Shown: one piece after another, positions 29,264 to 33,446 of the stretch
How the letters are laid out: each line of letters begins with the position of its first letter
Numbering within the stretch: position 1 is the first letter of the stretch
Assembly: GCA_964487335.1 (NCBI GenBank)
Contig: CAZAPT010000008.1
Location: forward strand, 27,425-91,424
DNA: 64,000 nt
Reading direction: 5' to 3'
Source: an uncultured Dehalococcoidia bacterium
GTDB taxonomy: Bacteria > Chloroflexota > Dehalococcoidia > DSTF01 > JACRBR01
Notes under the pieces: model-generated
Databases searched by the model: none
The model's input: the letters and a program-made list of their open reading frames with translations, nothing else
What the model was told of the DNA's origin: nothing
Position numbers and translations under genes: made by a program

Positions 29264-29291
29264 TTGACAATGCGCCGTGCAGTGATAAGCT
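29264..29291 (+). promoter_or_regulatory. Near-consensus sigma70 promoter for the large surface protein gene
   Basis: TTGACA 29264-29269, 16-nt spacer with TG extension, TAAGCT 29286-29291; palindrome AATTCG-cca-CGAATT at 29233-29247. Confidence 0.6.
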
Positions 29292-29555
29292 CAGCCCTAG
29301 CCGAGGAGCGCGGCTCCACGGTCATGCGCGCGGGTGGGGTCAGGCCGCCCCTTCGCATGCAATCCCCGCTCGTGAACCCCGCTACGTAATCAGGATGTAC
29401 GACGGCCCCGCAGCAGCGTGGCCGGAGTGCAGTGATGTTTGTCTGCAGCTTAGCTTCATTTCCCCGCAGAAGGAGGCGCGATTCGAGCATGAGCTGACCT
29501 CCGGAGACAACCTCCGGATCGATTGAGAGCCCTACACGTTCAGGAGGAATCACAC

Positions 29556-32159
29556 ATGAAGCGTGCCTTCTTGGCCACGCTAGGACTCGCCGTCGTGGTA
29601 CTCGCGGGCTTCGGCCTCCTCGGGACCGCTGGCGTCGCGTCTGCTGCGAATACGCACGTGATCACGATCGCGAGCCCTCAGGCTAACACTGCGGTCGCGG
29701 TCGGAAACACCTTCACCTTCACCTTGGCCATTACGCAGTCGGACCCTCCGCCCGCGAACGGCTATAAGGCGATCCAGTGGGAAGTGGCGTACTCTGACAA
29801 CGTCTCGTTCGTGTCGGCGACGTACAACTGCACCGACCCGAGCGGCATCAACTTCCCGGCTGAGACCGACACGGCGCCGGTCGAGGGCCCCCTGATCCCG
29901 GGCGTCAAGAACCTGGGTGGTGGCTCCAACTGCGCCAGCTTGCGCGGTTCGTTCCACGGCACGAACGCGCTGGGAACGTTCGTGACCGTAGTCCTGCACT
30001 GCGACTCTGTGCTTAACAGCCAGGGCATGGCAGGCGACGCCGTCGTGATCCGCCCGGCGACGGACGCTGCCAACCCGGCCAACGACCCGCTGTTCGGCAC
30101 GACGCTCCTCGACGAGTTCGCCGCGGCGATCCCGACCGATGACGCGCCGGTGTCCGTGCTGCCCGGCTTCGGCCCGCAGGCGAACGTCCAGTTCGCGTGC
30201 GCCGCTCCGGTTGACTACTCCGTCCAGAAGACGCCGCCGACCCAGAATGCGTCCGGCGACGCTCCGAACAACGTAGCCAACCAGACGATCTCGATCGCGA
30301 ACCCGGACAACGCCGCGCACGCGGTTTTCCTCAATGACACCGTGCCGGCTGGCTTGACTGTCACTAACGTCGTGCCGAGCGCCGGTGCGAACTGCACCGT
30401 CGGTCCGGCCCCGGCCGCCGCGGGCCCTGGCCCAACGCCGCCGTACTACGGACCCGGTCCTTACCCGGCGGCTCCCGCGGGACACATCATCTGTGTCGGC
30501 GCGGCTCCGGGTGGCGGCTCGATGTCGGCAGTGGTGACCACCACGGCGAGCCCCGCTGCGGACTGCTCGACAGCGGTCAACACCGTCTCGGGCGGCCCGG
30601 CGGACGCGACGACGGCTGACGGCAACCTCGCCAACAACGGCGCGGGCGCCCAGATCGTCGTCGACTGCCCGAACATCTCGGTCACGAAGACGTGCGTGGA
30701 TGACAACGGCCCGCCCGCCTTCACTGACGACACCTTCACCTGCACCATCACTACGTCGAACGACGGCCCGGCCACTGGCTCGACCGCCCACAACGTGGTG
30801 CTGAGCAACGCCCTGAGCGGCGGCATGAGCTTCGTCTCGGCCTCGCCTCCGTGCGCGGGCGGCTTCCCGTGCGCGCTCGGCGACATCCCGGCCGGTGGCT
30901 CCGTCGTCGTGACGGTCCACGAGAAGGCTCCGTCCACGGCCGCAACGGCCTGTGACACGGCGTCTGCCACGCAGAATGCTCCTGGCCCGGCTTCCAACTC
31001 GGTCCAGGTCTGCCAGGACGTCAAGAACAAGTTCCCGCAGATCAACGGCTTCGCCAAGGACACGGGCGTCACCCCGACCAACCCGGACGGCTCGCTGAAC
31101 ACGAACTTCACGTTCACCTTCGGCAACCTGTTCCTCTGCAAGCCGCTCGGCTCTGCGAACCCGAACCTGCCGCCTCCTGGCGCCTTCTCCGGTGCTGGTG
31201 AGTCTGCTTGTGGCGTCTTCAAGATCGCCGAGATCGTCCAGGAACCGGACGACATCGACACCTGCCAGGACGACAACGACAAGGACGGCAAGGGCTGTGC
31301 CGGCATTCCCGGCCCGCTCTACCCGTTCCAGGACCCGTCTGACGGCTGCCGCCTGAACGCCTCGGACTACATCCCGGGCGTGACGAAGGTTGACTGCGAC
31401 GGCGGTGAGGTTCCTGAGGGCCTCGGCGCGGCCGAGTTCCAGGTCAAGTTCGACGACAAGATCTTCCAGTCGCCGACCTTCGACTGCACAGTGACCCCGA
31501 CCGGCTCTCCCGCGATCCTCGGCTCCACTGGCCGCCCGGTCATGCTCCAGGTTTCGGTCATCACCGAGAACTGGGTGCAGTTCGGCTGCGTGACCAAGGA
31601 CCCGGCGAACGACGGCAACCCGGCGACGAACTGCCCGCCGGCGAACACGCTGCCTGACGGCACGTGCCCCGGCCCGAGCATCGCCAACGCTTCCGTCCTC
31701 GGCACTCTGACGCTCACGGTGCAGAACGACCTCCTGTCGCGCATGCGCCCGGCGAAGGAGAACGGGGTCGTCAGCAACCTGCTTGACGAGAACTGCGAGA
31801 AGGCTGACACGCTTGGCCAGCCGTTCAACGAGGGCCTGGACGCCAATGGCTTCCTCAAGGCTCCGTCGGGCGGTCTCAGCCAGGACTGCAAGGACGCTGC
31901 GCTCACCGTTCGCATGCTCGAGGGTGACATCAACCTCGACTGCAAGGTGGACATCGCGGACGACCAGTCCGAGGCGTTCCGCTACGGCCAGTTCTTCGGC
32001 CAGCTTGCGTACAACCGGTTCTTCGATCTCGAGCCGCCGATTTCTCCGGACTTCGATATCGACATCAAGGACCTGCAGACGGTCTTCGGCCGCAACGGCT
32101 CCACCTGCGCGGCTCCGATCCCGGCTCAGAACCCGAACCCGACGACTCCTGACCCCTAG
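29556..32159 (+). CDS. Large secreted Cys-rich surface protein (cohesin-like, two DUF11-like, cohesin-like, C-terminal dockerin-like)
   Basis: AGGAGG RBS; signal peptide ending ASA; SVQK..NDTVPAG and SVTK..SNDGP..NVVLSNALSGGMSFVSA DUF11 patterns; GDINLDCKVDIAD..DIDIKDL dockerin-type repeats. Confidence 0.75.
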   Translation: MKRAFLATLGLAVVVLAGFGLLGTAGVASAANTHVITIASPQANTAVAVGNTFTFTLAITQSDPPPANGYKAIQWEVAYSDNVSFVSATYNCTDPSGINFPAETDTAPVEGPLIPGVKNLGGGSNCASLRGSFHGTNALGTFVTVVLHCDSVLNSQGMAGDAVVIRPATDAANPANDPLFGTTLLDEFAAAIPTDDAPVSVLPGFGPQANVQFACAAPVDYSVQKTPPTQNASGDAPNNVANQTISIANPDNAAHAVFLNDTVPAGLTVTNVVPSAGANCTVGPAPAAAGPGPTPPYYGPGPYPAAPAGHIICVGAAPGGGSMSAVVTTTASPAADCSTAVNTVSGGPADATTADGNLANNGAGAQIVVDCPNISVTKTCVDDNGPPAFTDDTFTCTITTSNDGPATGSTAHNVVLSNALSGGMSFVSASPPCAGGFPCALGDIPAGGSVVVTVHEKAPSTAATACDTASATQNAPGPASNSVQVCQDVKNKFPQINGFAKDTGVTPTNPDGSLNTNFTFTFGNLFLCKPLGSANPNLPPPGAFSGAGESACGVFKIAEIVQEPDDIDTCQDDNDKDGKGCAGIPGPLYPFQDPSDGCRLNASDYIPGVTKVDCDGGEVPEGLGAAEFQVKFDDKIFQSPTFDCTVTPTGSPAILGSTGRPVMLQVSVITENWVQFGCVTKDPANDGNPATNCPPANTLPDGTCPGPSIANASVLGTLTLTVQNDLLSRMRPAKENGVVSNLLDENCEKADTLGQPFNEGLDANGFLKAPSGGLSQDCKDAALTVRMLEGDINLDCKVDIADDQSEAFRYGQFFGQLAYNRFFDLEPPISPDFDIDIKDLQTVFGRNGSTCAAPIPAQNPNPTTPDP

Positions 32160-32196
32160 GCCAGGAACCGTCTGACCGGGTAACGGTTGGAAACAG

Positions 32197-32235
32197 AGAG
32201 CCGCCGGAGGGGAAACCCTCCGGCGGCTCTTCTTT
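32197..32235 (+). terminator. Strong intrinsic terminator
   Basis: AGAGCCGCCGGAGGG-GAAA-CCCTCCGGCGGCTCT followed by TCTTT. Confidence 0.9.
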
Positions 32236-32340
32236 GTCCTCGACAACCCTGCGTCGCTGGCGTGGCTCCAGCCACAGACCGCCACCGCCCTGCGTTCCAC
32301 GTCCGGATGCGGGCGTGCGATTAGTTTGCCGTAACGGTTC

Positions 32341-32540: not shown

Positions 32541-33122
32541 ATGCGCTTCGTGATCATGTCAGCTGCCTGCGCCTGCGTTAGCGTCACCGTCGCCTGCTTC
32601 GGCGGCGGCGCCAGCAAGACTCCTACGCCCGCGCAGTCCCCCATCGCGAGTGTCGCCGCCGCGTCTACCGTCGCGCCGACGACCCCGGGCGCTACCGTCG
32701 TCTCGACGCCTCCACCGTCTGCCGGGGTCGCAAGCGATGGCAACGCCCCCGGCATTCCGCCGCTCACCGGTCCGATCCAGCAGACGCCGAGCGGTCTCCG
32801 TTACATCGATGAGGTGATCGGCAGCGGCGCGACGCCCGCGGCGGATGCCACCGTGACCGTCAATGAAACAACCTGGCTCGCGAATGGCCACAAGGTCGAG
32901 AGCACGTTCGACCGGAATCGGCCGTACACGTTTCCTCTAATGCAACCCGCGCTGGCCGGACTCGCCGAAGGCGTCTCGACGATGCACATCGGCGGCAAGC
33001 GCCGTCTGATCGTCCCGCCCGAACTCGGCTACGGCGCCAGCCCGGTCCCGGGCGCGCCGGGCGGCACCATTCCGGCGAATTCCACCCTGATCATCGATGT
33101 GGAACTGCTCTCGGTGCAGTAG
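32541..33122 (+). CDS. FKBP-type PPIase-fold lipoprotein with degenerate active site
   Basis: TVAC lipobox, TPSGLRYID..G.G, GGKRRLIVPPELGYG, IPANSTLIIDVELL. Confidence 0.85.
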   Translation: MRFVIMSAACACVSVTVACFGGGASKTPTPAQSPIASVAAASTVAPTTPGATVVSTPPPSAGVASDGNAPGIPPLTGPIQQTPSGLRYIDEVIGSGATPAADATVTVNETTWLANGHKVESTFDRNRPYTFPLMQPALAGLAEGVSTMHIGGKRRLIVPPELGYGASPVPGAPGGTIPANSTLIIDVELLSVQ

Positions 33123-33137: not shown

Positions 33138-33446
33138 CTACCCGTCGTCGATCCGCGTCGCGATCCGCGTGCTACCTGCCGCGTAGAACTTCACCTTCAC
33201 CGGCAACCGTTGGTCGATGTGTACCCGCAGATGCGTCGCCGCCACGTTCGCCCCTGGCTCCGGCTGGAACGTGAAGTCCCATGCCTTCCCGGCGTCGTCC
33301 CGCATCGTGAACGTGGTCACCTGCCCCGTCGCGTCCGTGTGGATCTGGGGAAGCACTCCGTGCACCGGCGACACCGGCCCCGATCCTCCGCCCCCGCATC
33401 CAACGACGCACAACACCAACGCCGCGACAGCGACCGCCATCCTCAT
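33138..33446 (-). CDS. Small hypothetical lipoprotein
   Basis: Hydrophobic leader ending VVGCGGG; OB-fold-like short beta domain. Confidence 0.6.
   Translation of the reverse strand: MRMAVAVAALVLCVVGCGGGGSGPVSPVHGVLPQIHTDATGQVTTFTMRDDAGKAWDFTFQPEPGANVAATHLRVHIDQRLPVKVKFYAAGSTRIATRIDDG

Follow-up and report, generated by a model that had tools for sequence, protein, structure and literature searches.

Cohesin-dockerin pairs are among the strongest protein connectors known and are well understood only in cellulosomes, which also have sortase-anchored base proteins with a single cohesin, of the Ruminococcus flavefaciens ScaE type. Chains that contain one cohesin and one dockerin are known as well, namely, adaptor scaffoldins such as ScaC of R. 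flavefaciens (PMC4081043). Cohesin and dockerin modules also occur outside cellulosomes, and in the passage of PMC5244752 that cites Peer et al. 2009, the role of such pairs beyond cellulosomes is treated as an open question. Another relevant group of proteins are fibrillar adhesins, the stalks of which contain DUF11 domains, now named CLIPPER; the crystal structure of a CLIPPER domain (PDB 9IFR) contains a Lys-Asp-Asn isopeptide bond (PMC12617251). Here, we analyze a gene of an uncultured Dehalococcoidia bacterium (assembly GCA_964487335.1, 92% complete), an open reading frame (ORF) of 867 amino acids at positions 29556-32159 on the plus strand of a 64,000-nucleotide stretch of contig CAZAPT010000008.1, hereafter, the window. 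An earlier note, made from the sequence of the window, had delineated this ORF, which is real, and described its product as a probable major surface or S-layer-type protein that carries both cohesin-like and dockerin-like modules.

With moderate confidence, we read the product of this gene as a secreted, non-enzymatic surface protein that resembles fibrillar adhesins and scaffoldins and docks through its C-terminal tail onto a cell-bound cohesin, in a system without cellulases. After Sec export, the protein would present a cohesin-like head at its distal end, a stalk built of two immunoglobulin (Ig)-like CLIPPER domains, and a conserved C-terminal unit that combines a cohesin sandwich with a dockerin-like calcium hairpin and would serve as the attachment device. 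In the presence of calcium, the hairpin would engage a cohesin that belongs to another protein, the cell-bound receptor. For relatives of the host bacterium, the probable receptor is a small protein that combines a cohesin with an LPXTG-like signal and a membrane helix and is the product of the gene immediately downstream of the tail gene; in the host genome itself, the likely receptors are encoded elsewhere, namely, on contig C5 (a protein with four cohesins) and on contigs C11 and C42 (proteins with one cohesin each). Further sockets, for proteins bearing dockerins or flexitails (the latter being the tags matched by the model NF041520), could be provided by the built-in cohesin and the N-terminal head.

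Comparison with described systems

Like ScaC-type adaptor scaffoldins, the protein is predicted to combine a cohesin and a dockerin-type module in one secreted, non-catalytic chain, with a presumed connector role in a cohesin-dockerin network. Unlike in these scaffoldins, the two modules are fused, with only two residues at the junction, to form a constant unit at the C-terminus of many different proteins; furthermore, the system includes neither cellulases nor carbohydrate-binding modules, the sequences are too divergent for Pfam, and the host belongs to Dehalococcoidia rather than to the cellulolytic clostridia. The likeness to ScaE belongs to the presumed partner and not to the protein itself. 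Small proteins encoded next to its homologs share with the ScaE type the signal peptide, single cohesin, linker, LPXTG-like motif, transmembrane helix and basic tail, but their motifs (PVAGxGP, LPVAG, VPLTG) are of the LPxAG/PxAGxGP kind instead of the canonical LPXTG, and their anchoring is a prediction.

With the solved non-cellulosomal cohesins of Archaeoglobus fulgidus (2xdh) and Clostridium perfringens (2jh2), which are among its best structural matches, the C-terminal domain appears to share the cohesin fold outside any cellulosome, but standard models match those modules, which lack a fused dockerin-like hairpin and do not serve as a tail throughout a family. The overall arrangement, with a signal peptide, a tip, a DUF11 stalk and a C-terminal attachment part, together with the triad in the first CLIPPER domain, resembles that of the CLIPPER adhesins (9IFR; PMC12617251). 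The differences are that the stalk consists of only two domains, that Asp and Asn are swapped in the second of these, and that attachment is predicted to occur through a cohesin-dockerin-like unit rather than through sortase or another sorting signal. The flexitails of Chloroflexota, similarly, are dockerin-like tags with calcium loops that are found at the C-termini of secreted proteins in the same genomes, but the tail described here is not recognized by NF041520, includes a whole cohesin and shows a different spread.

Thus, cohesins and dockerins outside cellulosomes, as well as chains containing one of each, are already known, whereas the rigidly fused cohesin and dockerin-like unit as the common tail of hundreds of Dehalococcoidia protein clusters is new, as are its invisibility to Pfam and NCBIfam and its cassette with sortase-type anchored cohesins. 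A full-text literature search yielded no paper that names cohesin, dockerin and Dehalococcoidia together. The tail represents a large, uncatalogued family in a widespread, mostly uncultured group of bacteria, offers a testable picture of how Dehalococcoidia might build their cell surface, and is a possible source of novel pairs of orthogonal connectors for use in protein engineering.

The C-terminal cohesin and the dockerin-like hairpin

The 28 homologs of the protein all come from metagenomes, the full-length ones being 36-60% identical to it, and by far the best-conserved part of their alignment is the last ~350 residues. Searches of the whole protein and of excised regions against Pfam and NCBIfam detected only DUF11, with a sub-threshold match to TIGR01451; as the earlier note had stated, no catalytic domain was found in the domain searches. 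For residues 510-867, AlphaFold2 (AF2) with an alignment of 118 sequences produced a model with a predicted local distance difference test (pLDDT) score of 86.2 and a predicted template modeling (pTM) score of 0.85, in which residues ~515-788 (31098..31919, plus strand) form a beta-sandwich of the cohesin fold, which is a nine-stranded jelly roll. When this model was compared to PDB using Foldseek, the best 17 matches were all cohesins (target-normalized TM 0.34-0.52, probability 0.95-1.00), cellulosomal as well as non-cellulosomal, including 2xdh and 2jh2. Using hhalign, the sandwich was also linked to an alignment of cohesins from the same genome (A5; 98.7%, E=3e-16) that includes four modules of the C5 protein certified as cohesins by Pfam (E=3.4e-32). 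Given this connection to Pfam-certified cohesins, the assignment of the predicted sandwich is sound despite the failure of Pfam to match it, and the fold and homology checks agree on a cohesin in this region. An Asp/Cys-rich insert, DDIDTCQDDNDKDGKGC, sits between the first strands of the sandwich.

Built from 14 sequences, the AF2 model of the whole protein was of low quality (pLDDT 59, and below 50 at both ends), and with this model, Foldseek retrieved only generic multi-Ig proteins (integrin legs, PrgB, AgI/II). In a phmmer search against PDB, the sole match, an acetaldehyde dehydrogenase, was a spurious, low-complexity one.

The last cohesin strand is followed after two residues, without the linker expected of an independent dockerin module, by a predicted dockerin-like double calcium-loop/helix (residues 789-850; 31920..32105, plus strand), which was delineated from the AF2 model, a profile match and the paralog on contig C5. 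A dockerin comprises two calcium-binding F-hand loops, each with a helix after it, in a span of about 60-70 residues. Loop 1 (D791-N793-D795-D799-D802) fits the EF-hand/dockerin pattern DxNxDxxxDxxD; loop 2 is acidic only at positions 5, 9 and 12 (D832, D836, D839) and has Ile at position 8. The helices that follow the two loops (800-816 and 837-844) were modeled with pLDDT 89-97. The profile of the hairpin region matched the dockerin 2y3n_B in PDB (E=0.015), with the alignment covering loop 1 and its helix; two BurrH repeat-protein chains that ranked slightly higher were discarded as repeat artifacts. The C5 paralog contains the hairpin unit after a flexible linker, scoring 67.9 bits against a hidden Markov model (HMM) of the tail, with both conserved Cys retained. 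Because this copy stands free, the hairpin is probably an autonomous module. Taken together, the model and the profile match support the designation "dockerin-like", whereas membership of the dockerin family goes beyond this evidence. The cohesin-like and dockerin-like modules proposed in the earlier note thus stand, strongly for the C-terminal cohesin and moderately for the N-terminal cohesin and the dockerin, although neither kind is matched by Pfam or NCBIfam.

Five Cys residues are invariant across the C-terminal unit. The extreme C-terminus, which is conserved and rich in Cys and Pro (C851-AAPIPAQNPNPTTPDP; 32106..32156, plus strand), contains invariant C, P, Q and P columns in the family. 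No sortase-substrate signal was found in the protein, which ends with CAAPIPAQNPNPTTPDP and has no hydrophobic segment, transmembrane helix or LPXTG motif in this region.

Spread of the fused tail and its pairing with anchored cohesins

A search of a protein library with the last 318 residues matched at least 458 protein clusters. Among the best 150 matches listed, the match was nearly always located at the extreme C-terminus, in proteins of 300-1200 amino acids. The front parts of the tail-bearing proteins vary and include DUF11, cohesin, Big, FG-GAP, beta-helix and propeller domains; the source name, where given, is "Dehalococcoidia bacterium". The tail is present in 29 of the 41 related genomes, with 1-9 copies in each. 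All 29 of these genomes also encode Pfam cohesins, in contrast to the 12 genomes without the tail, 5 of which lack any cohesin.

As seen in coordinate lists, many copies of the tail adjoin genes with Pfam cohesins. We examined nine such loci from nine genomes, a set that overstates the frequency of adjacency because the loci were chosen for it. In each, a gene for a cohesin protein of 312-426 amino acids lies downstream of the tail gene in the same orientation, with a gap of 63-286 bp in eight loci and overlapping ORF calls in the remaining one (L018). Eight of these anchor proteins were read. In all of them, a signal peptide precedes a single cohesin, which is connected by a Thr/Pro/Gly/Ser linker to a motif of the PVAGxGP/VPLTG type, and a membrane helix and a tail rich in Arg complete the chain, a predicted layout that is that of a sortase substrate; both locus anchors that were scanned contain a Pfam cohesin above the cut-off. 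The third gene of the cassette often encodes a cohesin together with a canonical-looking dockerin.

The same order of genes was found next to P0012 and P0005, the closest full-length homologs on long contigs, which were selected irrespective of their neighbors. In both cases, a 309-314-aa anchored cohesin (signal, cohesin, linker, PVAG(S/T)GP, transmembrane helix and basic tail) is encoded ~250 bp downstream, followed by a cohesin-plus-dockerin protein. The P0012 locus additionally encodes a flexitail protein upstream and, downstream, an LPDTG-anchored protein with a domain of the QWE type described below. Pfam sortases were detected in 36 of the 41 relatives, 1-6 in each, often ~10-20 kb from the tail/anchor cassettes. 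The layout of the protein, the occurrence of the unit throughout the family and its pairing with anchored cohesins together suggest that cohesin-dockerin-type binding through this unit holds the protein on the cell.

Candidate receptors and flexitails in the host genome

The host genome contains a single full fused tail, that of the protein analyzed here, and, in the C5 protein, a copy of the hairpin alone. This scaffoldin-like protein of 1072 amino acids is encoded outside the window (C5:29357-32572, minus strand) and has a signal peptide, four Pfam cohesins and Pro/Thr linkers. In this protein, the four cohesins are followed by a linker, the dockerin-like hairpin of the same type and a flexitail; accordingly placed on it, the tail HMM gave four partial matches with its sandwich part and one strong match with its hairpin part. 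The four C5 modules (E down to 9e-31) and the C11 protein (E=2.6e-27) are the nearest matches in this genome to the anchor cohesin of the relatives. Both the C5 and the C11 proteins end in flexitails, that of C11 matching NF041520 with E of ~5e-24. The C42 protein is LPVAG-anchored and contains a Pfam cohesin above the cut-off, of a subtype different from that of the relatives' anchor cohesin.

NF041520 has 51 matches in this 3.25-Mb genome and none in 27 of the 41 relatives. The spreads of the fused tail and the flexitail overlap only in part, and many genomes encode the tail without the flexitail. At least 12 ORFs of the host genome end with LPx(A/T)GxG, a transmembrane helix and an RRR or Arg-rich tail, a signal of the sortase type (for example, C2:187857-189161 and C42:10190-11488).

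The N-terminal head and the CLIPPER stalk

Residues 31-217 (29646..30206, plus strand) comprise a putative divergent cohesin-like domain of what we denote the "QWE(V/I)AY" type, which was recognized by hhalign, by a PDB profile search and through the relative P0021. Comparison of this domain with Pfam-certified paralogous cohesins using hhalign gave 81% (E=1.2e-5), the two top matches of its profile in PDB were scaffoldin cohesins (2y3n_A and 1tyj_A, E=0.12-0.18), and the Pfam Cohesin model matches the equivalent region of P0021. The AF2 confidence over this domain in the whole-protein model is low. BLASTP comparison with relatives that have a Pfam cohesin match was discarded as near noise (best E=0.001). 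Overall, these matches moderately support a divergent cohesin-like module.

At least 11 proteins of the host genome contain a QWE-type domain. One of these, encoded outside the window (C9:56518-60327, plus strand; 1270 amino acids), has at least two clear tandem QWE-type domains and a weak third one, as well as long linkers of Pro/Thr/Ser, with a dockerin-like repeat of canonical appearance, CADVTGDGVVTLKDV...YDVDGDGAVTVADL, at the C-terminus. In another paralog from outside the window (C10:73985-75457, minus strand; 491 amino acids), the N-terminal domain shares 40% identity with the head described here and precedes a long Pro/Thr linker and a flexitail (NF041520, E=5e-24).

The stalk consists of two CLIPPER/DUF11 domains. 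The earlier note had recognized both as DUF11-like, and the second passes the Pfam threshold, whereas the first becomes visible solely through the comparison of its family profile with 9IFR. Domain 1 (residues 218-372; 30207..30671, plus strand) contains a Pro-rich insert, outside of which pLDDT in the whole-protein model is about 80-88. Its family profile matched 9IFR with E=9e-11, aligning K225, D261 and N342 with the isopeptide triad; in the reconstructed 9IFR chain, the Asp falls one residue off the published number, so that the correspondence of the triads is at the level of the motif. All three residues are retained in 12 of 12 homologs. Domain 1 therefore has the residues for the isopeptide bond envisaged in the earlier note, with the Asn belonging to the AVNTV motif, but the "NN" named there is different: we take it to be the LANNGA pair (residues 359-360), which would lie outside the triad. 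By analogy with 9IFR, an isopeptide bond between Lys225 and Asn342, with Asp261 as the catalyst, probably cross-links domain 1 internally.

Domain 2 (residues 373-492; 30672..31031, plus strand; K378/N418/D467) matches Pfam PF01345 over residues 374-481 with 45.6 bits (cut-off 24.6; E=1e-11). Here, Asn418 and Asp467 appear in swapped order, whereas most relatives have Asp followed by Asn, and a canonical isopeptide bond in this domain is doubtful. Asp likewise occupies the Asn site of domain 2 in three close relatives.

Codon usage

The earlier note had pointed to an excess of T-ending codons, and the counts bear this out: compared with neighboring genes, GCT accounts for 21% vs 6%, TCT for 17 vs 3, ACT for 12 vs 5, GGT for 15 vs 8 and CCT for 13 vs 7, so that these five codons are 2-5 times more common in the gene. 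Genome-wide, the gene is in the 98th percentile for T-ending codons and in the 5th percentile for A-ending ones. The codon adaptation index (CAI), which had been proposed as a check on high expression, turned out to be ordinary. With the S10-spc ribosomal operon (contig C4), EF-Tu, L11 and S12 as the reference set, the CAI is 0.568, corresponding to the 59th percentile. This raw value is confounded by a strong third-position G/C strand skew (in the window, plus-strand genes have C3 of 0.59 and G3 of 0.26, and the pattern is reversed in minus-strand genes), hence the CAI was recomputed against strand-matched genes, which placed the gene in the 83rd-86th percentile. The reference translation genes favor G-ending codons and show no preference for T-ending ones.

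Low A3 and raised T3 recur, relative to their own neighbors, in tail-bearing homologs from other genomes (loci L011, L016, L021 and L023), which suggests selection specific to this gene; the codon signature is a conserved property of the gene family, distinct from the bias of the translation apparatus. Horizontal transfer was ruled out as the cause of the bias, given that the G+C content of the gene (0.66-0.68) is that of the window. Across the window (1-64000), GC skew is between -0.07 and -0.22 in nearly every 2-kb bin.

Alternative readings

Several observations weigh against docking of the tail onto a cell-bound cohesin. The Pfam Cohesin model (PF00963) matched neither the whole protein nor the two excised regions, even at E<=10, and no match was obtained on the protein with Pfam Dockerin_1 (PF00404), the NCBIfam dockerin models or NF041520. 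The sequence-level evidence for a dockerin, with the E-value of 0.015 given above, is marginal, and neither position 1 nor position 3 of loop 2 is acidic. There is no cohesin gene beside the gene analyzed here, the neighbors being recJ upstream and an FKBP lipoprotein gene downstream, and among five tail loci sampled without selection, an anchor gene was found within 1.5 kb in only one. In the 92%-complete host assembly, the small anchor-type cohesin of the relatives' kind was not found, and a Pfam search for sortases retrieved none. Furthermore, the two-residue junction and the high pTM imply a rigid composite, in which the hairpin may pack in cis. The C-terminal unit could then be a closed domain, stabilized by calcium and disulfides, with the hairpin packed on its own cohesin and no docking involved; its role might be, for example, binding of wall or envelope polymers, that of an export or quality-control tag, or that of a stalk cap. 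Apart from the close junction between the last cohesin strand and loop 1, and the modeling of the 358-aa piece as one body, the co-occurrence of cohesin and hairpin in most of the best family matches, the five invariant Cys across the unit, the failure of library dockerin models to match the hairpin, and the location of most tail genes away from cohesin genes in the unselected sample would all fit such an arrangement. We nevertheless consider it unlikely: in the C5 protein, the hairpin stands free after a linker with its Cys retained, so that it folds and probably acts alone, and unless the tail has a cohesin partner, its repeated pairing with anchored-cohesin genes would be difficult to account for.

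A different possibility, raised in the earlier note, is that of a very highly expressed, major S-layer-type protein that polymerizes head to tail, the dockerin-like tail of one molecule binding a cohesin-like module of the next, be it the N-terminal head or the sandwich in the tail. Such a polymer would be compatible with the presence of both kinds of modules in one chain, a monocistronic gene with a strong ribosome-binding site and terminator, an acidic mature protein rich in Ala, Thr, Pro and Gly, and the confinement of the tail, within the host genome, to this protein and the C5 protein. The codon signature, with A-ending codons in the 5th and T-ending ones in the 98th percentile and its recurrence in homologs, points in the same direction, but the CAI is ordinary both raw and strand-corrected, and the ribosomal genes show no such T-ending preference. 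Moreover, a Pfam scan of the protein detected no S-layer or S-layer homology (SLH) domain, and homologs are paired with a separate gene for an anchored cohesin. Many members of the family lack the N-terminal cohesin-like head, hence head-to-tail binding via this head is not the general role of the tail. On balance, self-polymerization appears quite improbable; domain content and CAI speak neither for nor against S-layer status as such.

Docking of the tail onto a separate, cell-bound cohesin, the reading that we favor, could be extended further. Tentatively, and with low confidence, we suggest that the fused tail might be a stackable connector of a non-cellulosomal system for surface assembly that is present throughout this order of Dehalococcoidia. 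In such a connector, the hairpin would plug into a cohesin anchored by sortase or in the membrane and the built-in cohesin would become the next socket, yielding daisy-chained, non-covalent fibers or a docked surface layer, possibly the main coat, alongside the flexitails. If so, the conserved, gene-specific codon bias would reflect very high expression.

Gene signals and neighboring genes

The N-terminus, MKRAFLATLGLAVVVLAGFGLLGTAGVASA/ANT, reads by eye as a Sec-type signal with an AxA cleavage site, as the earlier note had it. The predicted signal peptide (residues 1-30; 29556..29645, plus strand) would be cut after VASA, and homologs show the same N-terminal pattern. The mature protein of ~85 kDa is acidic, with a calculated isoelectric point of about 4.1, and is rich in Ala, Thr, Pro and Gly. 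The protein contains exactly 28 Cys, the number estimated earlier, and the motifs quoted at that time are in place, namely, YKAIQWEVAYSD (residues 70-81), GLGAAEFQVKFDD (622-634), GDINLDC (790-796) and DLEPP (824-828).

A ribosome-binding site, AGGAGG, is located at 29542..29547 (plus strand), 8 nt ahead of the ATG, in line with the earlier note. The strong terminator noted downstream of the stop codon is present as well: the intrinsic terminator identified by a terminator scan (32196..32241, plus strand) consists of a stem-loop (32196-32231), in which a 16-bp stem with 12 GC pairs closes a 4-nt loop, and of a T-rich tail that begins with CTTTGT. The near-consensus promoter claimed for the gene holds up in part. 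A candidate sigma-70-type promoter (29264..29291, plus strand) has a perfect TTGACA hexamer (29264-29269) that is separated by 16 nt from TAAGCT, but the latter matches the -10 consensus at only 3 of 6 positions, with an extended TG; a promoter scan of the upstream region that required at least 4 of 6 matches in each hexamer called none. If this candidate is used, the 5' leader would be ~260 nt long; an Rfam search of the 452-bp gap upstream of the ORF, the leader included, found no family.

The gene stands alone as a monocistronic unit, with recJ diverging upstream and an FKBP-type lipoprotein gene beyond the terminator. The product of the latter (32541-33122, plus strand) is a peptidyl-prolyl isomerase of the FKBP type that has a lipoprotein-like signal; next to this gene, on the opposite strand, is a gene for a lipoprotein-like protein of 102 amino acids (33138-33446, minus strand). 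The proximity of genes for a secreted prolyl isomerase and a surface protein rich in Pro might not be accidental.

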